A DNA stretch of 54,186 bases, the filler included, from Sphacelaria rigidula (lineage: Eukaryota), in the NCBI GenBank assembly GCA_964200075.2. It is 4 parts of 4 records of this genome, joined end to end, with 100 filler letters (N's around TTAATTAATTAA, not from the genome) between each part and the next. Parts side by side here need not be neighbours in the genome. Positions count along the whole stretch, not along the records: positions 27,145 to 40,615 come from CAXNAA020002862.1; 3 more parts are not named here. One strand, given 5' to 3'. The stretch's first letter is position 1, and every line of letters starts with the position of its first letter. Below are positions 13,473-47,162 of this stretch, one piece after another. The notes beneath the pieces were generated by a model, which was not told the DNA's origin, did no database searches, and saw only the letters and a program-made list of their open reading frames with translations. The position numbers and the translations under genes are program-made.

Positions 13473-13572
13473 NNNNNNNNNNNNNNNNNNNNNNNNNNNN
13501 NNNNNNNNNNNNNNNNTTAATTAATTAANNNNNNNNNNNNNNNNNNNNNNNNNNNNNNNNNNNNNNNNNNNN
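13473..13572. other. Assembly gap with artificial N44-TTAATTAATTAA-N44 linker
   Basis: 100-bp N block containing a six-frame-stop linker, identical at 27045 and 40616. Confidence 0.97.
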
Positions 13573-15935: not shown

Positions 15936-17467
15936 CTGCACGAGACGTAGCATTATCAGCAGCAGCATTATCAGCAGCATATTTATTGCCAGTTAATGTA
16001 CATGGCTGGGGGTGGATCTGACTCGACCGGCGCTGCTGCTGCTGCTGCTCTTGATCGTAGACGGTCCGCGTTTCGACCGTGCGACAACACCCACGCACCT
16101 TGCGGGTGATAGCCACCGCGCTGGACAGCTCTAACACACACACACAAATCGGTACCGGCTGATTTAGACCCACCCCCAGCCGCGTACATATACTGGCAGT
16201 AAAGATGCTGCTGATACTGCTGCTGTTGCTTCTTCTCCTCCTCGTGCGGAACGCGGTCCGCGTTTCGACCTGCGACAATATCAATACCCCCTCGCGCGCG
16301 ATTGCCGCCCTTCTTGAAGTCGCTGGTCTGTTCGCGTGCTGCTTTTACCATTCTGTATCACTTGTTTCCCACCCTACCATACTCGATTACAACGGCGCGT
16401 GATCTCTCGTGATGCTGCAGAACTGCTGTGTTGTCTTGTGTTGAGTGTAGTACTCTTTACTCCATACACCACTGCAGAGTCGTCTCATGTTGAGTGTAGT
16501 ACACTGTACTCCATATAATGTTTTCACGGTTTGAGCAGTTTTTCGAAAAGTTCTACTCGTTTTTTTTCAAGTATTCCGAAAAAACGAGAATATTTTCTGT
16601 AACAGAAATCTAATGCCGAAACTGGAATAACCTGGGATAACAACCAAATTGAAAATTGAGGAAGAAAATCATGACAACCTTCGAAAAACTGCGCACCCGG
16701 AAAAGGGGGGGAAGGGAGGGGAGGAGGGGGCTCCGTGTCCCAAAATCTTCTCCCGACAGGTCCTTGATTGCACAACTCTTCTTTCCAGCTCTCCTCCTGC
16801 TACTGTCCTGGGCTGTTGCAAGCCAACAGAGGGGAATGAGGCCTAGCCCAAGTCCGAAAAACAAATAACCGAACAGTGCAACCTTCTTGACCTCTCTGCG
16901 GCAGATGAGGTTTGAGTAGCGCACGCATATCCAGCAAAAATCCCGACAAGAATCGTGGCAAACAGCGAACAAATCGCTGATTTCAGTTCGATTATTTCAT
17001 CACAATCCGTACCCATGACCTCGGTGCCGTACTCGAATGATTACTCACTGCCTGCCTGCTCTTCGCCATCTCTAATACGCGATACAGACTCATGCGGAAA
17101 ATGACTGTCCGTATTCAAAACTATTTAAAGAATCTCCAGAGACTATAAAACGGTCCCGATGAATCTTTCGCACATACGAGCTCCCCGATTTTGACAGATT
17201 GAGATCTCCGTAGAACCGAGATTCGTCCCCAAAAAATAGTGCCACACAGCCAATTTGCACGAATATTCACGTCCGCCACCCGATTTGACGTCCGCGAATG
17301 CCGTGGACATACTCAATCATGGCAACATGAAAGCAATGTACCAGAGAGCAGCACGCCAATTACCTTTATTGGAACCGTACTTGCAAAGAATCTAGAACCA
17401 TGTCTTCATAATCAAAGTCATGAAACGCGCAGGATTACCTTCCTTTGACACGAGGGTGTTGTTGCAG

Positions 17468-24898: not shown

Positions 24899-25331
24899 CA
24901 CGTGATTTTACAAGTTGAGGATATGTTTTTTATTGGGGATGAGAACCCGGAGAATACAAATCTTCGTATCCACACCAAATCTTCGTATCCACACCTATGG
25001 TTTCATTTCTTCACTTGCCGGTAGCTTTTGACAACTACTACAAGTCATACAGATTTGGATTCCGATCACCGAAATGTTGAGGTCCTAGGGGAAAAACCAA
25101 TGATGGGGAATTTTGGTGATCCGATCGGACCCCAAAATTGGTTTTTCACCTAGGACTCCAACATTTCGGTTGTCAAGATCCAAATTTGTATGGCGTGGAA
25201 TAGTTGCCAACAGCTACCAGAAAGTGGATAAATGGGACCATATCGCGGAGAATTGGTGTGGATACGAAGATTTTAATTCTCCGGGTCCTCTTTCGCCAAA
25301 AAAAAACATCCCAAATTTGTAAAATCACGTG
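24899..25331. mobile_element. ~430-bp foldback/MITE-like element with long imperfect inverted arms
   Basis: CACGTGATTTTACAA...ACCCGGAGAAT...ATCTTCGTATCCACACC...GTCCTAGG.GAAAAACCAAT is mirrored on the right arm. Flanks CTTCATAC / CTTCATGA resemble a decayed 8-bp TSD. Confidence 0.75.
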
Positions 25332-27044: not shown

Positions 27045-27144
27045 NNNNNNNNNNNNNNNNNNNNNNNNNNNNNNNNNNNNNNNNNNNNTTAATTAATTAA
27101 NNNNNNNNNNNNNNNNNNNNNNNNNNNNNNNNNNNNNNNNNNNN
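27045..27144. other. Assembly gap with TTAATTAATTAA linker
   Basis: 100-bp N block with linker. Confidence 0.97.
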
Positions 27145-29781
27145 CTAGGCGGGGTGGGAGAAGCGGGGCGGGGGGGGGGGGGTGGGGGGGGGGGGGGGGG
27201 TAAACCCGTGCACGGGTTAACCTTTCATAGCGTGCCGGCATTGCCTAGTCAAGAGGTTGAGAGTGCACATGCTATGCAGTACCCCTTTCTCTTTCAGAAC
27301 GGACGGGGAGTCAGACCGGTTTCAAGCACGACCACGAAGCCTTGTAGTGTTCGCTGGCCACGTAAGGGTGCGTCAACTGAGGATTGTCGCGAGGCCGTCG
27401 ACATCAAACGCGCCTGAAAGAAGCATCACAAATGGTTGCGAGCAATACGGTATTGCAGTACACTCCCCCGATCTCCGCCCCCCTCAGTGTATTCTCATCG
27501 ACGGAAAATGAATCGAACACCCCCCAAAATTGACTTGAACGGCGTGGGTGCCGGACCTCTTTTCAGAACAAAAGTACTGGGTGATCTCCGACGTGTGTAT
27601 CATCGGGCGCTATAGGCGAGCCGCTGCTCTTAGTTCGAGAGCACTCCTCCGAAAAAACGCATGCATTGAAAATGACACGCGATCTTCAACCCCTTACTCA
27701 TATAACTGTCCAGCAAATGCAGCTGTTTCTTCACGTCGTTCAAGTGGACCACGTAGGGTCCAACTTGTTGGAGGGGCTCCGGCATAAGCGGGGCTGGATT
27801 CAAAATTTTGCACAAGCACGACACCGATACACGCGAAAACTTCTTGGAGGGGTAACTCGACATTTGCTGAAGGAACAACTTTCGCTGGCTTGAACGTGGT
27901 CCAGCGCGCCCAATGTAGTATACGATAAAGCTGACGACGCAAAACTTCTCAAGTGGGAAATGTACTTGCCAAAAGTTGACCTGCGATACGAGGTCAACAA
28001 CAGAGTGCGGACCGATGATCCGACGTTTGGAGCCATATCTACCGAGAACGAGGGTAAGAACAGACCACTACCAGTCTCTCACCACGTAGGTGGTCCACCC
28101 GCGGGGTGGTACAAATCGCAGCAGCTACAATTTTCACCCTTGCTCATCCCATTTCACCTCATTATGTTGTGCAATACACTGCAATCGTCATCACGAGCGG
28201 TCATCTGCGCTGAAGGATCTAACCCTGATGAAGCTGCAGCGTCCGGACCTACACTCAACCCTTGGCCATCATCTAGGAATATTTGGAGGCGTTTGACACC
28301 AGTGGATGATGGCAAAAGTTGTATCCCGCATTCGTGAGGATGCTCCGCATGTGCTGTGCATGTACAGTAGCAACAGCCCAGACAGCATCGCCCCGGCTCA
28401 GGAAGCATCCGCATGGAAGATCAAGGTGTGTTGATATGAATACAGGCAATTTCTTTCGCAGATTTCAACGGCGAAAGCGCTGTATGCAACGAGCTATGAC
28501 AGAATCCGTGCAGCTTAGGGTGAACACCACCCCTCTCTGGGAAACCTGACCTCCGGCGTTATGGGAGAGCACCGCGCTCGCGTAACACCACCGGCAGAGG
28601 CACAGGAAGATGCCACCAACTAGACAATGCAACACTTTCATTGAAAAATTATTTGCTGGGATCCATCAATGCCGCAAATGAAACGAGTCGGCTGGAGTTT
28701 AAAACGTTTGGATTTTGCTCCACACCAGCACAGTGGTGCTGTAGGGAACCAGCCCCATCTCTTTCTGTGATACAACCTGTTCACCCCAGTTCAACGCCAA
28801 CCCGTGCAGTACAGTACCATGCTCCCCAGTGCAGCACGAAAGAGCGCAACTTGGTGCAGTGAAGTGCAGTGCAGCATAGAGTAATGTACAGCCTGTGAAG
28901 CGTTAAGCTCGGGTATGAGCAGCGTCGACTGCAAGAAGAAATACAATGTACTGTACATTGGTACTACCGTACTGTACAGTAGTGCGTATATGGCGGTCAT
29001 TTCCAAGCCTCAAGACTCAGGATTCACGACGTGCGACATGCGGCCGTGGGTTATGTGCATTTGTGTTGGTTGTGTGTCCCACGACGTCAAGTACTAATCG
29101 CACCTGGTGCCCTTTTTTTGCGCAACAATCGTGAGTTGAGAACCTGCACCCGGGCTCCAACCACCCCATGCGTGGAGCAAGATCAAAGTGGTGTAGGTAA
29201 ACATAAATTTCGGGTTGTGAAGTTGGACGGTGCAACAGTACCTGTACGACGATCGCATGCGGCGACCATGATATATGATGGCGCGGTAAACAAAACTCTG
29301 TTTTCGCTGGACGGTACAGCATGAGGATCGCGCGTTTGAAGACTCTTGGGATCAAAAGCACTGACGTACATTCTGCACGTACCCACCCCTCGGTACATTC
29401 GATTTTCCTGTAGCACCTGCCCCGCATGAACGTCGGGGGCTGCCGACGGTCTCTTCTTTGTTAGAGCTTCCATCTGCGAGATCCCTGAGCGTCGGTTGGG
29501 CTACAGTAGCATATTCTTCGCTTGCTCCACGCTGCACTGGCTGGCTGCCTTCCACGCACGCTCGCGGGGAAAACTGAGCTCGCGGGGTTTTCGTGTGCAC
29601 GGAGCGGCGGGCCAGTGGCTCGGAATCAGTGTAACGATCGTTCCGCAGAGGGTAGCCAATATTGAGGGTGCCCAGGAGGAACAACTCGGTTTTCGTAACT
29701 GTTGGATGCCGTATCCTGAAATAATGAAGCAATGAGCGCCGAAATGTTGGACATGTCTCTATCAGAAGTAGGAGCGGTGCT

Positions 29782-29848
29782 CCGTCTCGAAAGGGATACG
29801 TGGTCAATGGTCAAACGACGAAGGCAATCAACAAATGAGTACACCCCC
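29782..29848 (-). repeat. ~67-bp mini-element copy
   Basis: CCGTCTCGAAAGGGATACGTGGTCAATGGTCAAACGACG...ACAAATGAGTACACCCC on +. Confidence 0.85.
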
Positions 29849-30677
29849 AACCCCCCCCCCCCCCGCCCCCCGCGCCCCCCCGCCTCCGCGACCGCCGAGC
29901 GCCGGCGCGCCNNNNNNNNNNGGCGGGCCACGAAAAAAGCCGACAGAACCACACACAGCAGGACCCCCCCCCCCCCCCCCCCCCCCCCCCGCCCGGGCAC
30001 ATTCGCTAATCGTAGATGTGGAAGATCCCCAAGATTCACAGTTGGGATGCAACATCTGGAGCACTTGTGAGACGCCAGCCGGGACAGTCCGACCGTGTGA
30101 TATGGCACCGCAATCGATCTCGAGGTAAGGGCACCACAACACCCACCCCTGGTGCCGTAATACCGCACGAGGTAGAAGTGCTGGAGATCGCCAGCACGTG
30201 ACTACTTTCCCCATGTTTAAGCTGATGGTTATTAGTTTTGAACGGAATTAGGCACGTCTACATTTGGAGATAACATATTTTCACATAAACCCCCGAATCC
30301 TACGCTCACAAAATCAAGAAGACCACACGGCTGATACGCTGTGCCCATGTATCGTTGCCCGGTCTCCTCTGGACAGGTGGTGAAGTGCCTGCACCACTCC
30401 CGCCGCTATCCCGTCCGACACATGCCACATCCACGGTTAAAAGTAGATCTCGATCGACACACTCCGAACGTCCAGCGCCGGTGGAAAATCTGAGGAAAAT
30501 CACCGGGGGTTACGCCGGCGAAGGGGGCGCAGCGCGGAAGTGACTGGGCTTCCGTTCGTACGGATAAGGCACGGTGACTGTACCGCCAGTTCTTCGGAGG
30601 CACGTGAGCCGACGCTGGGACAAGGAGCGATAGGCGAGAGACAAAGTCCCCCCGTTCGCGTCGCTCTCCCAACCAAG

Positions 30678-30745
30678 CCGTCTCGAAAGGGATGCGTGGT
30701 CAATGGTCAAACGACGGAGACAAGCAACAAATGAGTACGCCCCCC
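30678..30745 (-). repeat. ~67-bp mini-element copy
   Basis: CCGTCTCGAAAGGGATGCGTGGTCAATGGTCAAACGACGGAGACAAGCAACAAATGAGTACGCCCC on +. Confidence 0.9.
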
Positions 30746-30984
30746 TACCGAGCCCTGCCGAGCCCTGCCGAGCAGGAGTTCGTTTCAACACTACGCCATA
30801 ACGTTGTTGCGGATCTTGAGGTGGGGCGCGTTGTGAGGCTGGTGGACGTTCAATGGTGGCTGACGGAACCCAGAACCACAGCAAACGCCCGGGCTGTCCT
30901 CGACAAGCGCGCACGGGAGGAAGCGGTTGGAATTTCCGATACGGTGGCGGCGATCGGCACATGCAACGCCATTTAAACTGGCAG

Positions 30985-31366
30985 GTTGGGTACGATCTCA
31001 AATACTCTACCCCAATTCGGGTAAGCACTCTCAGCAATACCTGGGTATAGAGCATCACTTGGGCATGATCTCAAGAGTCTACCCAAAATTTGGGTAAGTT
31101 GGGTAAGATCTCGAATACTGTACATACATTTTGGGTAGACGGGGTACGATTTCAATACTGTAGCCATATGTTGGGTAAGGCCGTGTCTTAGCACATCATT
31201 CCTCGGTCGAAAAAGAAGTGCGGTGGAATTGATTTGAGCGAATTCGTTCATTTTTCGCGGTATCGGTTGGACGTTTGGATCGAAAGCAGACAGTGAAATT
31301 CTTGAACCGGTACTTTTCCGCTTGTCCACAGTACAGTACCGTCTGCGCTGTATGCATACGGTGTGC

Positions 31367-31408
<42 letters not shown>

Positions 31409-32360
31409 ATATTTCGTGCAGTAGGATATGAAAGACAAGCGGGCAACGTGCAGTACAGACGGCGCAGGACTATTGTATCTGAACTCTCTGCTTACAGTGC
31501 GATGTGGAAAGGACCTGAACAACGTGCAGCTTTGTACTGCCTGCACTGCCCATGAGTGTTTGCATGTCGGTCGTCCACCCTGTCACGCAGTTCCGTTGCC
31601 GATCCCCCACCATGAAAAAGATGCTCAAGCTTTCCCAACGAAAAATAAAGACATGATACCCTACTCCCGCAGTGTATCTGTCTCTGCGCCCAACTCGTGC
31701 TCTATGCCCAACTCGTGCTCTATGCCCAACTCGTGCTCTGTACTTCAGGGTTGCGGTGGTCGCTGAGAATGAGTTGTGTGGGGTTTGCGTGGTTATGTGA
31801 ACGGGTGGTATCTGGCGTGGTGGTCTGCAAGATAAGATTCAGGCGCCCCTTCGTACCTTTCCCCGTATATTTTCAATCGAAAAGGCCAAGAACAGGTCGG
31901 ATACGGTAGGCACCTGTGAATACTCGGGTGAAATACCCCGACATTTAGTTTGCCTAAGGTTTGAGTAGATCGGGTACGACTTCAATAACTGTCCCCAATT
32001 TTGGGGTCGATTGGGTATGATGTCAATACTGTACCCAATGTTGGGGTAGATTGGGTATGATGTTAATACTCTACCCAAATATTGCATAAGCGCGCAGTAA
32101 TACCCGGATATAGAGTATCACTTGGGTATAACCTCAATATTCAACGCATATTTTGGGTAATTTGGGTACGACCTCCAATACTCTACTCAAATGTGGGAAA
32201 ACTCTCTCGGCAATATTTGGGTAGACTATGGCTTGTCTCGGGTATGACCTCAATACTCTTACCAAATTGTGATAAACTGGGTACGATATCATGTACTCTA
32301 CCGCATTATTTGGGTACCAAGAGTATGACTTTCCAAAATACTGGGTATTGGATATACCCG
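30985..32360. repeat. Degenerate ~38-40 bp satellite-like array (TTGGGTA.....GGGTACGAT.TCAATACT.TACC), interrupted by an insertion at ~31200-31900
   Basis: The motif repeats at 30985-31180 and 31960-32350. Confidence 0.7.
31200..31890 (+). mobile_element. ~700-bp non-coding dispersed repeat with an internal (GT)n
   Basis: Collinear with 44430-45110 (+) and 50380-50770 (-): GATTTGAGCGAA, GGGCAACGTGCAGT, AACGTGCAGCTTTGTACTGCC, GCTGAGAATGAGTTG. Confidence 0.8.
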
Positions 32361-33319
32361 GCCCGATCTGCCCTTGCACAATTCAAAATACCGTGGGAAG
32401 CGCTGCCGTCCCCCTACCTTTATTTCATTTTTTTTTGTATCGTCGTTCTTCTTTTTCTCCGTTCCCTCCCCTCCCCCCTTTGTTTTTTCCCTCCCTCATT
32501 TTTACTGTTTTCTTCCCCTCTTCCATTTTTTTTATTGGCAGACATTTCCTTGTTCGTCTCTGGCCCGTGTCTAGATTCTTAGAGTATTTTTTTTATGTTT
32601 TGTCTTCCTCTGAAATGCAGCACAGACGTGTGTTTTCAGCATGCATGGCTTGATGCCTAGGGTACCCGTTGATGTGCAACAAATCTAGGTCGAATCGACG
32701 CAATACATGGTGGTGGTGATAATGATGCTGATGGTTTGTCAGAATACTTCTTGTCATTCGTGTGTGAAAAAAAATACAGTTATACACGGTGGAGGTTCTC
32801 TCAAGTTTGCGGCGAAATCTCCATGGTTGATCTTACTCTATTTGAGTGTGAACATCGATATTTGGATTGTACTTGGGTTGATAGTCCCCGAGTGCTCCTA
32901 GCATGCGCAGGACGCGTTTTTTTGTCCCGAACCGGTGCCGCGGGCGCCGAATGGAAGTCAACTAGCGCGCACTTTGCCTAGGGAACGCTTTGCAGTCTGC
33001 TCACCCGAGGGTTCTCGGTATGCCTTGGGTTGGACATGGGTTTGACGATAAGGTTATTTCGAAAATAAAAATGAACCATGTATGTTTCGACGTCGAACTG
33101 GGACAGACGCGTGTCCTTGTACACAACCCAACCACCAACCAAAAGTCCGTCATGTTTTTTTTTTCTTTATTCCGTCGTCCTTCAATGCCAACCCCTCGCC
33201 CTTCGTCGAGATGGACGGGCCCGTGGATTCTGGAAATCGAACCCGACCCCCGATCTCTCTCGAAATACTGTGCCTAGTCAAGTATCATGTTTTTTCCCCT
33301 AGACATGACTAGACAAACT

Positions 33320-35637
33320 CTCGGGCCTGAACTTGAACGCGTAACCTTAATCTCGACCTTCCTCGCTGGCTATTGTCGTGTAGTCGTGTCGGACCACCAG
33401 GTCCCGGTGACATCATATATACATATATATATACTTGAAGGGAGATATACAGTACAGTAGTTTTCATCTAAAATAGGAGGTCGTCGTTGTGTTTGTGTAT
33501 ATGAGGATATTCGAAAGTGTGTTCGAGTGCCACCGCTCATCTCAGTGACTGTTTGATTCCAAAGTTTGGGGATCGAGAGATAGCACCACCCGCTCCACAT
33601 TCCGAAATACGATCACATCTGCGCTCATTATTGAACGACTTACGGGCTGACCGGTATTCGGGGTCCTGAGACTACCCAGCCCCAGGTTCTGGCCCTTGAG
33701 TATTTTTGCTCCATTGAACCAATGTGCATCATTTTCGTGAACAAATGACGACGACTTTTTTTCTTAATTTCTACCAAATAATTGCGTTAGAGCCGGAAAA
33801 GTATGTTTTTGTGGACCAGTGACGGTCGATAACACCCCCTGATGAACAAGGTAATTACTCCGTATCACCCCGACAACACCAATTGAGGATTGTGTTCTGA
33901 GCGCGACCTGCTCATCTTCACAATATATATCGACGAGAAGACTTTTAAGCGGCAAGGACGGATACGACACGAAAAAATTCAGAAAAGTACCCGAAAACGA
34001 AAATTGCCCAACCGAGCTCTGCATAGTACAAGCGGGGGTGAACCAGTTGCGATCACTATCATAAATGATTTCACGGGCCCTCAATTTTTTGTGTTCACCT
34101 ATTCATTGAGCTAGAGCCGAGAAGGAACGTGTTTCGGATCATAAGGGTGAATGACACCCCCTGTCAATTCAGCTCGGAAGTCGTTCGATATTGAGCGTAG
34201 AGACGATTCTTGTTTCGGAATGTGGAGCGGATGCCTAGTATATCCCGACTCTCAAACGCTAGGTCGCTGGGATGAGCGGTGGCATGCCAAAAAAAAAAAT
34301 CAAGCCGCCGACTACTGCACGAAAAAATTACAAAAATATATATTTTTCAGACTTCTATACTACTTTGAATATGTATATATGTTGAAGTATGCATGGAGTA
34401 TACATGCATTACACTCTCAGGTCAGCGCTGTTTTTTGTATTATTTCCCTCGCAGGATGTTGTTTTCTCTTTCGTCAGTCACTCTTTTTTGGTTCTTCGTG
34501 CCACAAGAAAATCATCATGGTTTCCCTTTTTTTGTCCCTCCGCTCCTCTTTATCCCCTCTTTCCCCTTCATTTTTTTTCCCTTTCATGTGGTTCTCTTTC
34601 CTTCCATACTTTTTTTTCCTCTTCAGTTTCGTTTTTCTTTCACTTCGTCTGGGGCCCCTTATTTTTGCTTGCATGCCTTTGTTGTTTTTCGTTGTCTTCA
34701 CAGGTGCTCACCGTCCTGTACCAGGACTTGGTGGCTGCCTTGGGTGTAGAGCGATGTAGGGAAGGCGAAGGTGAGCGGCGGCTTGTACTGTTTGTGCTGT
34801 GTGCCGTTTTTTTTTGCCTATTGTGTTCTGTTTTTTGTTTGTAAGCTCCATGTGCTTTATTTTTTTGCTTCTATATGTTATTAGTTAGGCGATACACGGA
34901 ATCGTATTTTGAGGGTACGTTCGCTGATGTTTGTTGTGACTGATTATCTAGACGCCGGACGTCAACATGGAGATGAACAAGTCTATGTACACTTTTCTCT
35001 TCTGTTTGAATGTTTGAATTCGGTGGCTACACTAAATATATATACACACGCACATTTTGTGTCGCCCCGTAGCGTCTTGGTATCGCGGTTTGGATTATGA
35101 CTAACACTCCCGCACCGCATCAACGCTCGTCGAATGTATGTTTATCACACCTTGGACAAACAATTTTGCTGTGAAAAGTGTACTGCGCACAGTATCGACT
35201 ACTGCGTCTATTGCGTTAGAGAAAAGATGACACTGTACGCAGTACATCTTTTGACATCATAATCCATTATCCAAGGTGTCATGTATGTAAAATATGTGTG
35301 GACATCCCGGTCATTCTGGACGCCGGTCGACACCTCTCGGTATATGTGGGCGCATCAGTCGGGGCCTCACAGGAGGAAGGTCAATACAGGAAGTTTTTTC
35401 GTTTTTTATTTGTAGTACTCCACCTTCCTCCTGCGGTGGCTGCTTTTTTTTTTTTTAACGCGAGAGGGGTTCGGCGGTTCCCTTTCCTTGTCGACTGTGA
35501 AGTCGGATTTTGGGTATACTCACGACGCGGTCGCTCTCCTCTGTTGGGCATGGTGTGAGGAAAATTCCCAGATCTTGTGACGTCACCGAGATTCGAAGGT
35601 GTCGAGGTCACCAATTGAGCCACCGGGGCGACAGGCT
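33320..35637. repeat. Composite ~2.3-kb block, diverged direct copy of 38470-40435
   Basis: Collinear matches 33341-33420/38496-38586, 34700-35000/38860-39165 and 35080-35290/39838-40045. Both blocks end in the same SINE. Confidence 0.75.
35292..35637 (-). mobile_element. tRNA-derived SINE (~350 bp)
   Basis: The minus-strand head has an A box (TGGCTCAATTGG) and a partly deleted B box (TTCGAATC). The body is shared with 40050-40435 and 50835-51063. Confidence 0.8.
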
Positions 35638-37146
35638 ATATAGGGTATGGTATGTGTGTGTTTAGTGTAGATGTGTACAGTAGCAGGCGGTCTAACTATT
35701 CAGGGGTGTTTTGGGATTTTCCTCGCGTACTACTCTTTGATAGAACTCGAAACTGAGAGCGTCGGTAGATTTTGGTACAATATATAGATCATCCTCGAAG
35801 CACAGTGCTCACGTCAGTGTCAGTTGTTGTTATCAAGCAATACGAGTAAATTCCCCGTTTATCAGGAGGGTGTGATTGACCGTGACACACAGTCTTTCGA
35901 CTCTAGTGCCACGAGTAGGTAGAATTTCAAAAAAATAAAACTGTCCATTTGTTCACAAATATGATCGGGACAGGCTCGATCGACCGAAAATACCGAAGAG
36001 AAAGACTCTGGGCTGAAACGTGGCGGAACCCCCGATGAACGGTCAGCCCGTGAGCGACAAAATGAAGAGTTAGACCGCCCACTACTGTAGAGTATTCTGC
36101 TACCGACATCCTCACGTTTATCACGACGAAAATCCTGTAACAGTACTGTATTATTATTTACAAAACGTCAAATCATATGTTTGTTGTGTACAAAAATTCG
36201 CATCTGGAAGTATAGGAACCCGCAGCTTTCCGTCCTTCATTGTCAGCTGTCGGTTAGACAAGTTGGACAATACGGGGGCGCTCATGACTGTGACTGTTGT
36301 GCCAAATTGTTCTGTTCGCCGTTTTTTTTTTCTCCTCTGGCCTAGGCGTTTGTAGTTGAAAATATCACACCCTGGATAATAGACAATCAATGTTCTTCAG
36401 TAAAAGGAGTGTTGTTCGCAAGGCATCGCGTATGAAAAAATATAATGTTTTGTTTTGTTTTTGTTTTTGTTTGGTTGGTTTTCGTTTGCAACAAGGGCAA
36501 CGCGTTTTTTTATTTGCTGTTTTTTCTACGCTACGTTCTTCAATCTCGTGAGGTATATATCTAATAAGACACGGTAGTAGTTCCAAAAAGTATGGTCAGC
36601 ATCCCTTATTCTTTTCTCCACTCAGGGTGCCCCTTTCGTCAGATCCACGAAGAAATCGGAGGAACTGGGATCCAGCGATTCGTGAACCAAGAGTTGGGGA
36701 AACCGGGGAAGATCACGACTCAGGGATTGACATTCTCGGCCAAAATCAACACGCGCTTGCCATGCCCAGCGACGTGAGAAGCAGAGACCTGAACGTCGAG
36801 GACATGAGATGCACCCCATACCCAACTTTACTCATGGGAAAGGGGAAGCATCTGCTTTTTCGTTTTTTTCGCTGCCTTTTTCCTTCACCTCTAGTTTTCC
36901 TTGGCGAGTACTTTCGTGTCATCGCCCTTCAGACGGTCCATATTGTGGATCCGTGACAGATTAGCTATGATAGTGCGGAACAAGCAATCGACCAATTGAT
37001 CAATGATACTCCTCCCTCCTTCTCATTTTTCCGACTCCATACAAAAGTCCTGAGGCCACGCGAATAGGCCTTTGCGTCGTAGGCCTCGGCCCCAAAAAGG
37101 TCCTTTTTTTTCTAGCCTTCATATTTTTTCGAAAGCCCATTTCCGT

Positions 37147-37511
37147 GTCAGTCTCGAGAATGCTCACGGCCTCGATGCTGATGTCACTCTTGCCCAGTTC
37201 ATTGGCCAAGTCTGCCGCGATACTCGAGCCCTCGACGTCCAGGTCCCACGTGCATCCGGGGCAGTGCTGGAGGATTGCTGCCTCCTTGATGCCGACGCTG
37301 GTGATGTAGTCAACTTCAAGTCATCTACAAGAGGCCTGAAGCTGACGACTACGCCACCAACGTCGGCATCAAGGAGGCAGTCATCCTCCAGCACTGCCCC
37401 GGATGCACTTGGGATCTGGACGTCGAGGGCTCGAGTATCGCGGCAGACTTGGCCAGAGAGCTGGGCAAAAGTGACATAGGGGTAGAAGTCGTGAGCATTC
37501 TCGAGACTGAC
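37147..37511. repeat. Long inverted repeat 1 (arms ~175 bp, tiny loop)
   Basis: GTCAGTCTCGAGAATGCTCACG... is mirrored by ...CGTGAGCATTCTCGAGACTGAC. Confidence 0.95.
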
Positions 37512-37512
37512 A

Positions 37513-37810
37513 AATACAGCAGGAAGGTTCCCGAGTTTGGTGCTGCCATACCCTCGGGCAAGCTCAAGTCGGATAGCCAGTGGGCCGGGGCCAGCCAGGC
37601 TGGACGCCAAGCTAGGCCCCGCGGCACACTTTTTAACGATGCGATGGACGTCAGCGATTTCCGAGTGGTTGACGTCCATCTTATAGTTAAACAGTGTTCC
37701 GCGGGGCCTAGGTCGGCGTGCAGCCTGACTGCCCCTGGCCCACCGACTCTCCGACTTGACACTTCCCGGGGGCACGGTAGCACCAAACGGGGGCACCTTC
37801 CTACTGTATA
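37513..37810. repeat. Long inverted repeat 2 (arms ~140 bp), directly adjacent to repeat 1
   Basis: ATACAGCAGGAAGGT...GATGGACGTCA is mirrored by TGACGTCCATC...ACCTTCCTACTGTAT. Confidence 0.92.
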
Positions 37811-38469
37811 TGTGGCCGTGAGTGTCGATCTTGCTGTCGGTGCGGGGCGACGCATCCGGCAACGTGCCAGGGGTGGAAGAACCTTCCGCGGGGGCGGGGG
37901 AAGGCTCATCGCCCGAGTCGATTTCCGACTCGACCTCGCCCAGGGGCGACATATTCCCATCTTCCTCGGAAGGAACGACGGACACGGGGGACCAGTCGGA
38001 GTCGGAGCCAACCTCTGGGGCACATGTGTCCGTAGGCGGTGTAGTTCCAGTGCGGGACGAGGCAACGTCGTCTCCGCCAGCGGCAACACGTATCGCAGAC
38101 GTGGTGCTGGTCTTCGTGTATGTCACGGGACTGTGCGACTCGATACGGGACCGAGGGTGTAGCATGATCAGGCCGTGCTGGTCGTCATGTAATTTAGGTG
38201 CGTGTGCCACACGACGAGTGTTCATGCATCGCAGTACAGCATAACAATACGGAAGGTTGTTGTGTGTTGCGATCGGATCTGAATAAATGATCTAGTGTGG
38301 CGAAGAAAAATGTTGAGTGCCAGCTGGTGCAATATCAGCCGTACACGCGACAGGTTCGGCCGCCTGGCATGAGGCGCAGAAAATCAAAGCCTGGGGGGCC
38401 GACGTGAGACAATGAAACCTGCTACAAGTCAGGGCGGCATTACTTCGGGCTGAAGAAGCGAGAAACACT

Positions 38470-40435
38470 CTTGGGCATGGATCCGAACGTGTGAAGTAAC
38501 CTCAATCTCGACTTTCCTCACTGGCTGTTATTGTGTGGTCGCGTGGTCGTGACGGTCGGACCAGCAGGGCTTGGTGACATCATATGTACCTTAGTAGGGT
38601 TTTGTTTTATTTGTCGTCAGGCAGTCTTGTTTTTTATTCCTTTGCGACAAGAATATTGATCATGGTCTTCGTTGTCGCCGTCTCCCTGTTTTTCAATCAC
38701 CTCTTTCATTTCCTTTATCCCCTTGAGTTTTTTTTTGCGTTCCTCAAATTTGATTCATTTTCCTTTCCATTTTTTTTCTTCTTTCCCTTCGTCTGGTGCC
38801 TTTCTTGGTTGCTCGCGTTGTTGTTGTTGTTGTTGTTCGTTGTTGTTCGTTGTTTTCGCAGGTGCTCACCGCCCTGTACCAAAAGTCCGTTTGGGCTGCC
38901 TTGGGTATAGAGCGATGCAGAGAAGGCGAAGGTGCGCGGCGGCTTGTACTGTTTGTCCTGTGTGCCCTTTATTCAGCCTCTTGTGTTTTGTTCCTTGTTT
39001 GTCGGCTCCGTGTGGTTAATGCTATAAGTTGCTCGTTTGGCGCCACACATCGAATCGTATTTTTTATTTTGAAGGTCCGTTCGCCGTTGTTTGTTGTGGC
39101 TGATGTACTGTCCAGATGCCGGACGTCAACATAGAGATTAACAAGTCTATGTACACTGTTTTCTCCTTCCTCGTGTTTTTATGTCTACAGTACCCCACGT
39201 TCGGTGTGGGAAATTAGGTAATTTCTTCGTAACTGCTGATTTTTTGTTTTTTTCGCTTGCCACCGCTCATAACATTGGGGATCAGAAGACACTAGTATTC
39301 GCTCCACATTTCAAGAAAAAAAACATGTGTACCCGGTATTGAGTGACTTACGGGGTTGTCGGTCGTCGAGGGTCCTGCTATTTTTCAGCCCAGATTCTGA
39401 CTCTTCGGTATTTTCGGTCGATCGAGCCTGTCCCGATCGTATTTGTGAAGAAATGAAAAGACATGTTTTTTCAACTCCTACATACTCATTGCACTAGAGC
39501 TGAATAGCTGTGTTTCACGGCCAATAACACCCTGCTGATAAATGGGGTATCTACTCGTATCATCCGATAACATCGACCAACAAACACTAACTTGGGCACT
39601 GGGGGGGAAGACGATCTGTTTATTTTACCAAAATCCATCGACGCTAGCAAATTCGAGTTCTATCGAAGAGTATACGCGAGAAAAATCCCATCTTCGGCCG
39701 TGCTCATTTCGAATCTGGGGGAATAAAACGCTTCTGCACAGAAAAAGATTTCCTCCTTTTTTTCATTATCTGAGGATTTGATTGAAGCTTGTGGCCAAGC
39801 GATATTCACTTTTTTTGTTTCGTCCCAGTACCGTCTCGGTATCGTGGTTTGGATCATGACTAACACTCCCGCACCGCGTCAACGCTCGTCGAATGTGTAT
39901 CACACCCTAGACAAACAGTTGTATTGTGAGAAGTGTACTGTGCACAGTATGGGCTATTGAATCTATCGCAGTAGATAATAGATTCTATACTATATGCAGT
40001 ACACCTTTTGACAATGTCATCTATTGTACAGGGTGTCATGCATGTATATGTATATGTGTGTGTTGTCATCCCATTTATTCTGAACACCGACTGATCTGCA
40101 CCTTCCGGAATATGTGGACGCATCAGCCGGGGTCACGCAGGAAGAAGGCCAACACAGAAGTTCTCCCCCCGTTTTCTTGTTTTGGTACGCCACCTTCCCT
40201 CTGAGGTGGTTGTCTTATATTTTTCCGCCACAAGCGGGGCCCAGCGGTTCCTTTCCCTCCTCGACCGTGAGATCGAATTTTGTGTACCCACGACTTAGTC
40301 GCTCTCCACAGTTGGGCATGGTGTGGGAAAAAATTCCGAGATCGTGTGACGTCACCGAGATTCGAACCCACGACCCAACCGTCAGAAGGTTTCGGAGGTT
40401 TGGAGGTTACCAACTGAGCCACCGGGCGACCGGCT
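38470..40435. repeat. Composite ~2-kb block, direct copy of 33320-35637
   Basis: See 33320-35637. Confidence 0.75.
40050..40435 (-). mobile_element. tRNA-derived SINE, near full length
   Basis: On -: AGCCGGTCGCCCGGTGGCTCAGTTGG (A box) ... GGGTTCGAATCTC (B box), shared body, and a (CA/TA)n tail. Confidence 0.85.
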
Positions 40436-40543
40436 ATATAAGGTATATGTGTATTTTTAGTGGTGGGTGTATAGAGTATTTTGCTACCGAGGTCCTCATG
40501 GTTATGACGACAGAAATAATTTACTGTACTGTATTGTTGTTGA

Positions 40544-40615
40544 AGCCGGTCGCCCCGTTGGCTCAGTTGGTAACCTCGAAACCTTCTGACGGTTGGGTCG
40601 TGGGTTCGAATCTCG
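40544..40615 (+). mobile_element. SINE tRNA-like head, truncated by the gap
   Basis: AGCCGGTCGCCCCGTTGGCTCAGTTGGTAACCTCGAAACCTTCTGACGGTTGGGTCGTGGGTTCGAATCTCG. Confidence 0.85.
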
Positions 40616-40715
40616 NNNNNNNNNNNNNNNNNNNNNNNNNNNNNNNNNNNNNNNNNNNNTTAATTAATTAANNNNNNNNNNNNNNNNNNNNNNNNNNNNN
40701 NNNNNNNNNNNNNNN
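40616..40715. other. Assembly gap with TTAATTAATTAA linker
   Basis: 100-bp N block with linker. Confidence 0.97.
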
Positions 40716-41780
40716 CTGCGAAATACTATTCCAAATTTCAACCGATCCGGTTCTTAGAAGGCGAATGCGCCGGGCAATATTTAGAGTTGGACCCTGAAAT
40801 TTGGTACGGACAATGCATGAAGCATAATAAAAAATCGGGAAAAAGCACATGAAGTTTTTTTTTTCGTGAGTTAAGGACAATAATCAGTTTTCAGGTTTCA
40901 GCAAAACGCCTTTAACTCACGAAAAACAAACAAAAACCTTCATGTGCCTCTTCCCGATTTTTTATTATGCCCTGCGCATTATCCATACCGAATTTCCGGG
41001 TCTAACTCCAAATATTGGCCGGCGCATCCGCCTGCAACCTTTCATGCAGCCTCTAGGCTGGCCCAGCTCGTAGGTGCCTGAAACTTCCAGATCCGCCCCC
41101 ACGAACGCTGCCCCAGCTGGTGCTAAAGATGCACAGGGCAAACTCATCCCAACTTTCTGAGCTCTAATTTTGGAATTGTGATTTCAAACCCAACATGGAG
41201 GATCACCCAGGTATGATATAAAAATAAAAAATGGGCCTTCATTTATTTTTATTTTTTATGAGAGGTTCGGGCGTTCTCGTGAAAAAATGGTCGTTACCAT
41301 ACTAAAACGCCCTGAATCAGTGGAAAATAAAAATAAAAACCAACCTCACCCATTTTTCTTGGTTCATCATGACCTAGCGAGGTTCCGCACAAAGTTTCAA
41401 CCCATATGCACCAAACGTGGGCCTATTAACGGCCTGCAAAATACTGCTCCGAATTTACGCCGGCCCGGTTTTTCAAACGTAAATTCGCATTTTTTTTCTT
41501 GGACTTGGAAAGTGAAATTTGGTATGGACAATCAAGAGGGCATGAAGAAAGGCTGTCTGTGAGGTCCCATTTTTTTTTTTTTATGAGTTGAGGGCAATAA
41601 TCAGTTTTGAGGTTTTAGTAAAATGCCTTCAACTCATGAAATAAAAAAAAATGTTGGGATCTCACAGACAGCCTTTCTGCATGCCCTCTCGATTGTCCAT
41701 ACCATATTTCACTTTCCAACTCCAAGAAAAAAATTGCGAATTCGCCTGCAAAGTACAAATCCGCTGGTAGGCTGGCCCAG
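40716..41780. mobile_element. Two tandem copies of a non-coding element, each ending in a ~270-bp foldback (40759-41033; 41480-41744)
   Basis: Self-complementary arms surround a conserved loop CAATAATCAGTTTT.AGGTTT.AG.AAAA.GCC. Each copy is followed by AGGCTGGCCCAGC. Confidence 0.75.
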
Positions 41781-44092: not shown

Positions 44093-44210
44093 GTATGTGT
44101 ATCTCCCAGGTGTTGCCCTTCCTGGCACCGGATCTCTATAATATTTTCCCGGGCTTGGTCTTGCTTACGTTTGCGGTCGGTTGCTGTGGCGTTGCTTCCG
44201 GTTCGCTCAG

Positions 44211-47162
44211 GAGAGGGTCGACGGCCATGATGCGGGAGTGGTGCCGGTAGATCAGTTGACACCGGAGCAGTTGAAGCGGTATCAGGCTTGGAAACGGAGC
44301 CGGTTCGAGCGGGGCGCCGTGCGCGAGGTGATAATCGGAGGTCGGGTTTGCGAATCAATAAAAAAAAGTTGTACCGTATGCACGGCACAGAATGGTCGTT
44401 TTAGCTTGCTGGTTCAACAATCGGATTATCAGGGCGTGTCTTACCACTTTTTTTTTCCCGATTGAAGTACTGGGTCGGCGGAATCGATTTGAGCGAAATT
44501 TTCTCGTTTTGATGCAGTTGGGTCCAGATGGATTTTCAAGCTTTCGATTGAAAAAAGACAGTGAAAATCGTGAAACGGTACATGGTCACTCGTGTGCAGT
44601 ACAGACAGTATTGTCTGCACTGCTTGCAAGCAGTGTCTTGAGTGCGTGTGTGTGTGTTTCGTACAGGAGGAAGAAAAGAGAAGCGGGCAACGTGCAGTGC
44701 AGACAGCCCAGGACTATCAGCTCTCTCTGCTTACGATTCGACGTGAAAATGACTCCAGCAACGTGCAGCTTTGTACTGCCCCTGCACTGTCCATGAGCGT
44801 GCACGCAACTCGGTTGCCCACCGTACGACGCAGTTCCGTCGCTGATCCCTACCATGAGAGAAGATGCGCAAGTTTTCGCCAACAAGAAATGAACAAAGCA
44901 CACCCGACTACTGCAGTGCATCCATCCCTGGTCTCAACTCGTGCTCTGTGCTGCAGGGTTGCGGTGGTGGCTGAGAATGAGTTGGATGGAGTTTGCACAG
45001 TCCTGTGAACAGGTGTTATCTAGCGTGGTGGTCTGTAAGATGGGAGTCAAGTGCCGCTTCGTGCCTTTCGACCGCATGTTTCCGATCGAAAACGATTGTT
45101 TTTTACGTTGACCTATTCTTCTCCGCGCGCCGCTACTTATAAATTTGAAGCCTTCTGGGAATATAAATGCGGTGGGTCCATCAGATTGGCAAAAAAAATC
45201 GACCGCACTTTTTCGATCGAAAAAAAAGAAGTGCCAAGACACGCCGTCAGGCGCAACCGGAAGGGGGCGTACTCATTTGTTGCTTGCCTCAGTCGTTTGG
45301 CCATTGACCACGCATCCCTTTCGAGACGGAGCAACCGGAAGAGGGGGCATCAATCCGTTCATAATTAATAGAATGACCATTTGCGTATATATGAGGAGCG
45401 CAGCCAGTCGCCGGAGTCGAGAAGCAAGCAAACAAGCGTTGTCTTTTGTTTTATCTGTACTTGTACATTCTCATGGATTTGACGCTTAGCAGGGTGGCAG
45501 CGCATTGGCTCTGGTAGTTGATGTGGGCAGAGAGAACTAGGTCAATCGCCGGCAGTACTAGATGTGCCCAGTTTCTTTGAAGACGAAAGGCATGTGGCGC
45601 AGGAGAGGAAATGTGTCAGTTGGGAACATTTCCACTTCCTATTTTTTATTATTGATACGCCTTTCGCCTGCGTTTTGACGGTTTGATTTGATTGATCGAG
45701 TAATTGTCGCATATTTAGTGATCCTCGAGGGAGTCAGCCTCAGTCATTATTCACAAGATACACGTACCCAAGATTTTCAAACCGGAAACTCTCGCTAGAG
45801 GAAACTCGAGAAAGGGAGAAGGCAATGGAAATAAATGAATAAAAGAGAAGATGAAGGGCAAACGTGAACTGAGCGAAAACGGCAGACAAATCAAACAAAA
45901 ACGATCATGGAAAGGGACGGGGAAAGGAAAGCAGAATAAGAACACGAATCGCCAGTCCCGATGAGAACAAGAACAACAATGACGAACAAGAAGAAAAGAA
46001 ATGAGAAACATATAAACAAAAAAATAGAAATGGCCAACGCGTGCAGCATGGCTTCAGATAACAAGGGTGCTAGAAGAAGGAAAAATGTAATCGTAGCTGT
46101 TTGTGGGCCACGGATCTACATAAGTAATCTAGATTCACACGAGGGGCAAAATATTGGAGGTGGAAATAAAGTTATTTCATGTTGGTATTCTGTATATGCT
46201 TTCGTTGAATCGACGACATTTGCATTTGGTGGCATTTCGGTCACCCACAATCATCCATCCACAGGTTCTCATAAGTGTTGACGCATGGTAAAGTTACGAT
46301 TAACGGCTCCCTGTCTTTCACGTTCAATCCGCTTTTCCGGGGTGCGTGACTTCACGAAAAAATATTATGCAGTAGTACCCCCCGCGGATATGGCACACGC
46401 TGGGCCGTTCCTCCGGCACGCGAAATCGTAGCAGTCTGGGGGCAACGTACAACACAGAGTACAGCGACCGGGTACTGCTATCTGTGTGTACCCTTTGTGT
46501 GGAATTTCACGTTCACCCCGTGTTTCTCCTGATCCATTCCTGTGTCGCTCGTCGTGCACGTGTTTGTTTCATCGGCAGCTGGTCACTGACCGTGCGGCGC
46601 CCACGTTGCTTCGAACACTCGAAAGGAAGCAGGGTAACGGAACGATCAAGGAAGTCACAGCCATCGCCGTCGGGGCTGTCGCCAAGATGTATGTCGGGGA
46701 TGTCATAGAAGAAGGTGAGGTGCTCCAAGTGTTGTTGACAAGCTACTGCCCTCCATCTATGAATTCTCGACCACCATTGTCTGAATCACGATGTCACGTC
46801 TTCTTGACCACGGCAAAGCGAATGGGATCCTTGATACTCTCGTGCGGGAGAAATGGGATGAAAATATACGAATACGCAATGTTCTGGGGTCGGTTGGCCC
46901 ACCGCCCGCTATGCCGTTTTTTTGTTCCTTGCTCCTTCTCGCTGAATTTTCAGCCAAGCGCGCGCAGTTACAAAAAGGAGAGCAAGGGCCGCTGCGTCCA
47001 CAAGACTTGTTAGAGGCAAGGGATCGACTAGCGCGGGACGGGAGAGGGCCGCCGCTCAGTACTGGCTCCTTGGAGCCGGCGCGAGAGCGAGGAATGACAG
47101 CGGGCGGATTCCGTTCATCTTTAGGGGGTGGGGGGCGGTTGATCAAGGGAGATGCGATATAG
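44211..47162 (+). CDS. TAF11: TFIID subunit TAF11 (TAFII28-like histone fold); exons 44211-44327, 46579-46714, 46954-47162
   Basis: Spliced in phase (0-0, 0-1, 1-stop): QLTPEQLKRYQAWKRSRFERGAVRE/LVT...TAIAVGAVAKMYVGDVIEE/AKRAQLQKGEQGPLRPQDLLEARDRL. This matches TAF11 EQl.RYE..RRS.F, G..K.FVGE.VE.A and PL.P.H.REA..RL. All GT-AG with pyrimidine tracts. Confidence 0.9.
44430..45110 (+). mobile_element. ~700-bp dispersed repeat copy inside a TAF11 intron
   Basis: Collinear with 31200-31890. Confidence 0.8.
45264..45330 (+). mobile_element. ~67-bp mini-element flanked by the direct repeat GCAACCGGAAG
   Basis: The direct repeat is at 45253-45263 and 45331-45341. The core is nearly identical to the other three copies. 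Confidence 0.8.

Follow-up and report, generated by a model that had tools for sequence, protein, structure and literature searches.

A compound palindrome inside a broken gene-family member of Sphacelaria rigidula, possibly born of template switching

Introduction

How does a protein-coding gene come to hold two long inverted repeats lying back to back, and does the resulting structure do anything for its host? The question is raised by a locus at positions 37147-37810 of a 54,186-nucleotide stretch of DNA from Sphacelaria rigidula (GenBank assembly GCA_964200075.2), in which four parts of four records are joined end to end and which is referred to here as the window. The locus lies within the part that comes from CAXNAA020002862.1 (27145-40615). 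An earlier note on this DNA had proposed that a gene with two tandem copies of a domain pair (X-Y-X-Y) was killed by a single 336-bp inversion, which at the same time may have given birth to a hairpin-RNA locus, and had mentioned a reversible switch as a less likely possibility. We find that the locus is a compound palindrome inside a dead gene-family member, and we favour a template-switch or fold-back accident over tandem duplication plus inversion as its origin. To the specific reading that one microhomology-mediated, self-templated event made three junctions and deleted the middle (M) of the gene, we assign a probability of roughly 0.5.

Results and discussion

Two adjacent inverted repeats

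A repeat search places the arms of the first inverted repeat (hairpin 1) at 37146-37311 and 37347-37512, which are 166 nt long, 89% complementary and 35 nt apart, and those of the second (hairpin 2) at 37510-37653 and 37670-37813, which are 144 nt long, 81% complementary and 16 nt apart. On gapped alignment the hairpin 1 pair is about 12 nt longer, with a 3-nt indel, and the remaining loop comprises about 12 nt (37323-37334); its arms have a 40-nt exact inverted repeat in common. Both palindromes are recovered by self-blastn (E values of 5e-119 for hairpin 1 and 3e-71 for hairpin 2), which finds no further copy of the arms in the 54-kb window. The predicted RNA fold of 37130-37830 (701 nt) reaches -556 kcal/mol versus -264 +/- 6.6 kcal/mol for 20 shuffles, with 167 pairs in hairpin 1 and 128-130 in hairpin 2. 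The stem of hairpin 1 spans 166-190 bp, is 89% paired and includes an uninterrupted helix of 40-47 bp; that of hairpin 2 spans 144 bp, is 81% paired and has a longest helix of 13-15 bp. The presence of two adjacent inverted repeats, far beyond chance, is thus confirmed, at bounds within 1-3 nt of those first given (37147-37511 and 37513-37810), and the folding agrees with the proposal that the locus holds about 300 bp of potential double-stranded RNA (dsRNA) matching the gene family.

Read along the minus strand, the locus consists of an N-terminal region, a sense copy of X (arm X1), inverted copies of X and Y in antisense (arms X2 and Y2), a sense copy of Y (arm Y1) and a C-terminal tail. The N-terminal region (37814-38165, minus strand) is rich in Ser, Pro and acidic residues, has a possible start codon at 38163-38165 and lies in an open reading frame (ORF) at 37164-38291. 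Arm X1 (37670-37813, minus strand) is contiguous with it. The 16-nt loop of hairpin 2 (37654-37669), flanked on either side by the self-complementary hexamer GACGTC, separates arm X1 from arm X2 (37513-37653, plus strand). Arms X2 and Y2 (37335-37512, plus strand) meet in frame at 37510-37512, where the last 3 nt of Y double as the first 3 nt of X (ACA), an overlap that both repeats share. The loop of hairpin 1 (37323-37334, plus strand) encodes four codons, IYKR, which are present only once and are contiguous with arm Y2. Arm Y1 (37146-37322, minus strand), the diverged arm of hairpin 1, is a sense copy of the Cys-containing Y (..ILQHCPGCTWD..LGKSDI..) and is contiguous with the basic C-terminal tail (37000-37145, minus strand; stop codon 37000-37002), with which it shares the ORF 37000-37320.

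The middle 336 bp (37323-37658), comprising arms Y2 and X2, are inverted relative to the gene, as the earlier note had recognized. This block is inverted between arms X1 and Y1 and is circularly permuted, such that X1 faces X2 and Y2 faces Y1. It measures exactly 112 codons and is bounded by ATC...GAT (3-nt inverted), and the sequences that flank it, Y1 and X1, are not related. A surviving minus-strand ORF of 375 aa passes from the N-terminal region and X1 into antisense sequence. The ORF of the gene is broken, as previously noted, and the locus encodes no family protein any more.

Coding origin of the arms and loss of a middle region

A search of 1.84 billion representatives with the plus-strand block 37323-37658 (112 codons) returned five matches at E<=0.001. 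Two of these are unnamed single-member clusters from Logan contigs, P0001 (195 aa, E 1.7e-19, 51% identity to the block) and P0004 (374 aa, E 1.1e-4); the other three (P0002, P0003 and P0005) are long, internally repetitive proteins, and we judged them spurious as relatives. P0001 has X (residues 12-56), M (57-109, 53 residues), Y (110-172) and a short basic tail, each once, and its Y shows the conserved CPxC..W, EG and GKSD; its alignment with the locus extends past Y (..ETDT / ..TTDT) into the tail. P0004 shares the M-Y-tail portion with P0001, and M is the part next to Y that is best conserved between them; the N-terminus of P0004 has no significant match to the N-terminal region of the locus (E 0.23).

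When P0001 and P0004 are compared with the window by tblastn, Y is found twice (37323-37550 on the plus strand and 37287-37141 on the minus strand) and so is X (37799-37668 on the minus strand and 37521-37649 on the plus strand). With P0001 the E values are 1e-18 for arm Y2, 1e-14 for Y1, 2e-5 for X1 and 1e-4 for X2, which supports the proposal that the arms stem from coding sequence. For M of P0001 (57-109), by contrast with X and Y, the window yields nothing at E<=10 beyond one chance-level match of 15 residues elsewhere (E 4.0). Thus, the arms are coding-derived, and the M region of about 50 codons is shown to be absent from the locus copy. The layout of the relatives also supports a reading of the old gene on the minus strand as N-X-M-Y-C.

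A profile search for the family returned only P0001 and P0004, and the 375-aa ORF had no match among 8000 scored candidates of 206-657 aa. None of the pattern matches in metagenome contigs of JGI (0 of 130 and 0 of 485) or in IMG/VR (0 of 27) was confirmed as a relative. Pfam gave nothing for three pieces of the locus save a sub-threshold Tir match of 14.6 bits, and nothing for P0001 or P0004; ESM Atlas gave no usable match for the family, and an AlphaFold2 model of P0001 built from a 4-row alignment has a mean pLDDT of 31. The family is an orphan, small and lineage-restricted (alga-specific).

Divergence between the arms

The Y arms differ at 18 of 166 positions (12 transitions and 6 transversions) and the X arms at 27 of 144 (12 and 15, respectively), proportions on which mutation of the arms in the manner of repeat-induced point mutation (RIP) was rejected. 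The differences fall at codon positions 1, 2 and 3 in the ratio 3/5/10 in Y and 9/8/10 in X, and change 7 of 55 residues in Y and 16 of 47 in X. Estimated by NG86, the synonymous divergence (dS) is 0.276 for Y and 0.268 for X, the non-synonymous divergence (dN) 0.078 and 0.207, and their ratio (omega) 0.28 and 0.77. The earlier statement that the differences are mostly synonymous hence holds for Y but not for X. One antisense frame of Y yields an equally low omega of 0.27, so that the coding frame of the arms is settled by the homologues rather than by the omega statistic. Behind the omega of Y stand 8.5 synonymous and 9.5 non-synonymous changes, and with a Fisher p of 0.06 for the third-position excess, its low value is a suggestive, not a strong, sign of constraint.

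Third-position divergence is similar in the two pairs (10/55 in Y versus 10/48 in X), and from the equal dS we take the two pairs to be of one age or of one source. With dS of about 0.27 in both pairs, the structure would be either old or copied from a diverged paralogue. P0001 allows some of the differences to be polarised: at 10 differing columns between Y1 and Y2, Y2 matches P0001 at 6, Y1 at 0 and neither at 4, while among the differing columns of X1 and X2 the corresponding counts are 4 for X2, 5 for X1 and 9 for neither. The inverted arm Y2 therefore looks conserved, and Y1, the arm attached to the native tail, seems to have drifted.

Junctions and paralogues in independent contigs

Eleven sequencing runs were listed, nine of them with part of the stretch, in three studies, and four were aligned in the form of Logan contigs. 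These are denoted run X1 and run X2 (one study), run X3 (a second) and run X6 (a third), always with the word run to tell them from the arms. Runs X1, X2 and X3 are DNA runs, whereas run X6 is guessed to be RNA; among the listed runs no RNA holder is given and four are guessed to be RNA, and one DNA run bearing the locus is labelled 'algae metagenome'. The Y2/X2 joint (37510-37513) is bridged by contigs in runs X1, X2 and X3, and the centre of hairpin 2 (37654-37669) by contigs in all four runs; both junctions therefore exist in samples of three studies. In runs X1 and X2, 36638-37232 (the left flank with the Y1 half next to it) and 37351-38700 each form an unbroken chain. For the centre of hairpin 1 (37233-37350), which no aligned contig covers in any of the four runs, the window assembly is the sole source, and cover is also missing over 37167-37322 in run X3 and 37139-37529 in run X6. 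These gaps are likely due to the 40-nt exact inverted repeat and a high-depth paralogue branch, which break k=31 assembly graphs. A comparable depletion of RNA-seq reads over near-perfect hairpin arms is described for Drosophila hairpin RNAs (hpRNAs; PMC10317233).

Such gaps speak neither for nor against the structure. The linkers (N44-TTAATTAATTAA-N44) that join pieces of the window about every 13.5 kb, and the 40-nt exact repeat as a possible site of confusion, might suggest that hairpin 1 (or at least the placing of its two arms side by side) was created by a misjoin or by a chimeric palindromic read. However, the arms differ by 11% in substitutions that have codon structure, unlike artefactual palindromes, and both occur in independent contigs of runs X1 and X2 with the expected flanks (36638-37232 and 37351-38700). 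Also, the unbridged 118 nt include inner Y1 sequence, and an assembler cannot invent so diverged a copy; hairpin 2 and/or the Y2/X2 joint is bridged in three studies. An assembly artefact is, in our estimate, very improbable.

The runs also reveal what the locus has lost. A contig whose k-mer depth far exceeds that of its neighbours (183 against 16-36 in run X3) is present in runs X1, X2 and X3. It matches 37323-37380 at 95% identity or more, departs from the window exactly at 37323 and goes on with 218 nt of different sequence. Read by eye in frame with IYKR, the final 30 nt of this continuation encode TLSLALDGSV, and the corresponding residues TLSLAVYGSA of P0001 and TLSVGVHGLV of P0004 directly precede their (V/M)HK(R/T)P. 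The paralogue contig thus carries the end of M immediately before IYKR, and the same organism therefore has at least one M-Y paralogue with no intron between the two regions. Its departure from the window further implies that 37323 is a true breakpoint of the locus copy. Patches of the N-terminal region likewise show several-fold higher contig depth, pointing to paralogues, though summed contig depth is not copy number; taken together, the depths suggest that the family is multi-copy in this organism. The Y2/X2 joint is at single-copy depth, as is the segment 37388-37683 (the rest of Y2 and all of X2) in runs X1, X2 and X3.

Some differences between the runs and the window were seen as well. 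Around the loop of hairpin 2 (37641-37680), runs X3 and X2 differ from the window at 6 and 5 positions, respectively, in 40 nt (5-7 variant letters), mostly G>A, while differences elsewhere in the aligned 2.2 kb are sparse. A flip-flop of this loop was rejected, as a hand check showed that the variant letters are not its reverse complement. In the N-terminal region, all covering contigs of runs X1, X2 and X6 have the same four alternative letters at 37853, 37869, 37881 and 37897; the source of the window therefore differs from those samples there, or represents another allele. A-to-I editing does not account for the A>G differences of run X6, which are present in DNA runs X1 and X2 too.

Origin of the rearrangement

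The arrangement invites the model in which a tandem duplication produced a functional N-X-Y-X-Y-C gene that diverged under selection until the 336-bp inversion of 37323-37658 killed it. An in silico flip of this segment joins N-X1 to Y2 in frame (..MDVNHSE/IYKRPEADDY..), and Y2 runs in frame into X2, the right breakpoint being free within the 16-nt loop; these are the junctions that the earlier note had anticipated. The in-frame Y2/X2 joint and a block of exactly 112 codons would be natural for a tandem-domain protein, the omega of 0.28 in Y fits divergence under selection, dS is equal in both pairs, and ATC...GAT bounds the block. The tandem order, however, occurs in neither of the two relatives: P0001 has X-M-Y-C once, P0004 has M-Y-C, and the one partial paralogue contig has M directly before Y. 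Intact homologues without an X-Y-X-Y order are what the earlier note had itself named as refuting its model. The loss of M, too, is left unexplained by tandem duplication plus inversion. The well-conserved M would have had to go first while the protein stayed functional. A single inversion, moreover, needs two breakpoints at equivalent points of direct repeats. The breakpoints do fall at nearly the same position in each domain, within about 5 codons, as had been pointed out, and no inversion mechanism predicts this (a rough estimate of the chance is about 20 nt in 340). The second junction of the flipped form, between X2 and Y1, is out of frame and 16-19 nt short, again as first described; the Y2/X2 joint is at single-copy depth, X lacks constraint (omega 0.77), and the 6:0 asymmetry of Y2 and Y1 is not predicted. 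We therefore regard duplication followed by inversion as doubtful, although it keeps some credit.

A reversible switch, operating by site-specific or homologous flipping of the 336-bp block, fares far worse. The geometry is all that recommends it: a defined reversed block with 3-nt inverted ATC...GAT at its ends, the flipping of which restores one frame junction. Its flanks, Y1 and X1, are unrelated, and the existing repeats could flip only the loops of 12-35 nt and 16 nt; no alternative joint or second orientation occurs in the four runs, though contigs drop rare variants. The uninverted form is without a counterpart in the relatives, M is missing, and the flipped form would still be out of frame. 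A Pfam scan of 117 of the 130 window ORFs of at least 100 aa (the other 13 comprise 6 that overlap an EsV-1-7 gene and 7 at the locus itself) found two matches, neither of them a recombinase or a transposase. This idea can in practice be dismissed.

The reading that we favour instead is that one replication or repair accident yielded all three new junctions together with the loss of M. Synthesis would have proceeded through X; near the end of X the strand would have turned back at the self-complementary GACGTC and copied X in antisense; via the ACA overlap it would then have jumped to the end of Y and copied Y in antisense up to IYKR; and it would finally have re-entered Y four codons downstream, such that M was never copied. 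The template may have been the gene itself or a paralogue. Consistent with this, the inverted copies adjoin their templates with short spacers (16 nt in hairpin 2; in hairpin 1, 35 nt when aligned without gaps or about 12 nt with them), and the sequence between the switch points, M, which abuts 37323 in the paralogue contig, has been replaced. Candidate microhomologies are ACA at the Y2/X2 joint, the GACGTC hexamers that flank loop 2, and ATC...GAT at the ends of the block. The inverted copies end where the M deletion has its edges, a coincidence that template switching explains at no extra cost, and we take the same dS in both arm pairs as support for one event. Fold-back duplications of larger size have also been described. 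The locus resembles events ascribed to fork stalling and template switching (FoSTeS) or microhomology-mediated break-induced replication (MMBIR) in its inverted flank copies beside the originals, its short spacers and the loss of intervening sequence, and further in its joint microhomology and its two inverted pieces from one locus (PMC11724301). At double-strand breaks, the same source describes inverted duplications templated by fold-back, as well as inverted insertions that come in pairs from a single locus through microhomology-mediated template switching.

Several observations weigh against this reading. After 11-19% divergence, the microhomology at both hairpin centres cannot be read with confidence. 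Arms that have been dead since a single self-templated event should give an omega of about 1, whereas Y has 0.28, and they should have drifted symmetrically, whereas Y2 and Y1 match P0001 6:0; these two signals suggest selection on Y2, gene conversion by a paralogue or a paralogue template. The in-frame Y2/X2 joint would be a 1-in-3 coincidence under template switching, and the exact length of 112 codons is what a once-functional tandem-domain protein would need. Loop 1 belongs to the inverted copy and not to the arm with the native tail, so that an overshooting template switch would be needed. The fold-back insertions reported at breaks are mostly 5-34 bp in the source cited above (PMC11724301), and other reported events are very large chromosomal duplications, whereas the arms here measure 144-190 bp; the locus also differs from observed fold-back events in being ancient and fixed.

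Part of these difficulties would be removed if the same three-junction event had taken place with the Y2-X2 block copied, or later converted, from a functional paralogue. Y2 agrees with P0001 at 6 of the 10 differing sites, Y1 at none; omega of Y is low (0.28), and 37323-37380 is at least 95% like a several-fold deeper contig, with a single difference in run X3, while Y1 and Y2 differ there at 3 of 34 overlapping arm positions plus an indel. The high depth of N-terminal patches is expected if members exchange sequence. However, 37388-37683 is at single-copy depth in runs X1-X3, and hence no donor of at least 95% identity is present now; a microhomology of 6-7 nt finds a local copy more easily than a distant paralogue; and the drift of X1 and X2 is symmetric (5 versus 4 sites match P0001). 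We hold a paralogous source to be distinctly unlikely. If it were true, the arm divergence would be a divergence between paralogues, and the event may be far younger than a dS of 0.27 implies.

Other routes were rejected as well. Plain snap-back of two broken ends is at odds with loop 1, which is contiguous with the copy and not with the original. Twin-priming retroposition and transposon-excision hairpins are not known to give adjacent inverted copies of the same segment of at least 150 nt. An origin as a miniature inverted-repeat transposable element (MITE) was rejected on account of arms that are coding-derived, without another copy in the window, mostly at single-copy depth and unlike the other foldbacks of the window.

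Transcription and the hairpin-RNA question

Contigs of run X6 (78 million letters, with patchy cover in 14 of 30 bins and a depth of 5-25) cover 36883-37138 and 37530-38201, the latter through the overlapping segments 37530-37971, 37942-37992 and 37963-38201. After 38201, a loose end of 24 nt matches 38866-38889, uniquely. With a 4-nt ambiguity (GTGC), the only canonical reading of this gap is a plus-strand GT..AG intron, and there is none on the minus strand. The intron (38198-38861, plus strand) would have 664 nt and a pyrimidine-rich 3' end with a (GTT)n run, and it is covered in DNA runs X1-X3. The segment upstream of it (37530-38197), assigned to the plus strand on account of the intron, would be part of an exon that covers hairpin 2 minus its first 20 nt. 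We infer a spliced plus-strand RNA that holds nearly all of hairpin 2 and is antisense to the old gene. It counts against this inference that the splicing is read from one contig of one run, and that a 664-bp deletion allele with 4-nt microhomology may look alike.

The predicted hairpin RNA of such a transcript could possibly be diced into small interfering RNAs (siRNAs), and a functional hpRNA locus, the siRNAs of which silence an expanding paralogue family, would be compatible with any model of origin. The long intramolecular stems, one with a perfect run of 40-47 bp, would suit such a role, as would the homology of the arms to P0001, to P0004 and to a paralogue contig of the same organism, the apparently multi-copy nature of the family, the near-identity in nucleotides of part of Y2 to paralogues, and the RNA-like contigs of one run across hairpin 2 except for its first 20 nt. 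Brown algae have Dicer and Argonaute. As for precedents, in D. simulans hpRNAs have arms from young multi-copy genes and lie inside existing transcription units (PMC10317233), Ectocarpus is reported to have homologues of several small-RNA pathway genes (PMC4513859), and a brown-algal Argonaute is named in a figure legend (PMC5381526). However, no helix in hairpin 2 exceeds 15 bp, and in the plus-strand transcript the family-like arm Y2 would have the same sense as its presumed targets instead of being antisense to them. The Rfam matches at the locus are only to generic miRNA hairpins, none of the eight reaching the gathering score (42 versus 100 bits and 41 versus 71 bits at the two hairpin centres), and the Ectocarpus analysis traced no miRNA to a protein-coding gene (PMC4513859). 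On balance such a function is improbable, and most likely the locus has no present role and is a transcribed relic.

The locus does not look like a canonical microRNA (miRNA) gene, having stems of 144-190 bp and no Rfam match at the gathering score. Precursors of miRNAs are much shorter than such stems. The criteria applied to them include a short precursor hairpin, precise processing of miRNA and miRNA* and a 2-nt offset (PMC4513859). We also considered that the locus could be a brown-algal counterpart of Drosophila hpRNAs and plant proto-MIRNA loci, in which one rearrangement turned a member of a young, expanding orphan family into a transcribed double hairpin diced into siRNAs against its own paralogues; this would be a long shot. 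On such a reading, Y2 would have been kept matched to the family as a source of antisense guides on a minus-strand transcript. It may be set beside this idea that Y2 keeps all ancestral residues that can be polarised and that its first 58 nt are nearly identical to the several-fold deeper paralogue contigs.

Surroundings of the locus

The 54-kb window holds four further inverted repeats that would form hairpins, their arms being some 100 nt or longer. Two of them (40759-41033 and 41482-41742) are AT-rich, MITE-like foldbacks of about 270 bp with arms of 100-106 nt that are 84-91% complementary; they belong to one family (84% over 80 nt), have a partial third copy at 7862-7975 and give sub-threshold Rfam matches to plant MIRNA families on both strands. 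The other two (24926-25305 and 15935-16250) are unrelated to the locus; one, of about 430 bp, is nearly fully palindromic and the other has 96-nt arms with CAG/CTG-rich runs. The locus shares hairpin repeats of 100-190 nt and short loops with the MITE-like or foldback elements at 40759-41033, 41482-41742 and 24926-25305, but these are AT-rich and non-coding. Its own arms, in contrast, come from coding sequence, are at single-copy depth and show no similarity to those elements. The common occurrence of 100-190-nt hairpins in this genome fits the view of genomic hairpins as raw material and lowers the surprise of one more. An analysis of Ectocarpus proposed pre-existing genomic hairpins as a source of miRNAs (PMC4513859).

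Among 129 scanned ORFs, the only genes recognizable by Pfam are an EsV-1-7 gene and TAFII28-like exons. The former, a cysteine-rich repeat gene (PF19114; 18825-20763, minus strand), comprises two adjoining ORFs with 10 and 4 repeat matches (E 1e-158 and 2e-57); the EsV-1-7 family is described as having undergone a large expansion in brown algae and the lineages nearest to them (bioRxiv 10.1101/2024.02.19.579948). Along with the 'algae metagenome' label of one run, this points to an alga, probably a brown alga or a close relative, as the source. The TAFII28 (TAF11-like) histone-fold exons at 44142-44462 and 46432-47010 (plus strand; E 4.5e-6 and 1.8e-4) constitute the nearest recognizable plus-strand gene downstream of the spliced transcript. 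A 94-nt stretch of the transcript's intron (38496-38589) has a direct similarity of 76% to 33341-33422, 5 kb upstream, and may be a dispersed repeat. The part joints of the window (13473-13572, 27045-27144 and 40616-40715) each consist of 44 N, TTAATTAATTAA and 44 N, a linker with stops in six frames, and there is a plain gap of 10 N at 29912-29921, such that the locus lies within the piece 29922-40615. Next to a linker and to the 10-N gap are G-rich and C-rich homopolymer-like tracts (27147-27200 and 29844-29893) that are complementary across 2.6 kb and may be assembly-end artefacts.

Relation to gene-derived hairpins and significance

Plant MIRNA genes are said to arise by inverted duplication of their target genes, a proposal attributed to Allen et al. 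in 2004, and brown algae evolved miRNAs independently. The locus resembles gene-derived hpRNA and young MIRNA loci in being a long inverted repeat with arms homologous to a protein-coding, apparently multi-copy family (PMC10317233). Like hpRNA loci, it would be embedded in a transcription unit, and dsRNA with the sequence of the family could arise from it. It is unlike them in that two back-to-back hairpins derive from different parts of one gene and formed in place in the parent copy with the middle lost, rather than as one inverted duplicate elsewhere, and its arms, already 11-19% diverged, set it apart from young hpRNA or MIRNA loci.

In this locus a complex rearrangement of small scale, now fixed in a eukaryotic genome, can be followed in good detail: it has three junctions, a deletion and two inverted copies, and outgroup proteins and a paralogue contig reveal what was lost. 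Among the papers that our literature searches listed, none reports gene-derived hairpin small-RNA loci in brown algae. If small RNAs arise from the locus, the 'inverted duplication of target' route would become testable in this group. Were the siRNA reading to prove true, the locus would give its lineage, in which no known miRNA could be traced to protein-coding genes (PMC4513859), a first small-RNA hairpin of genic origin.

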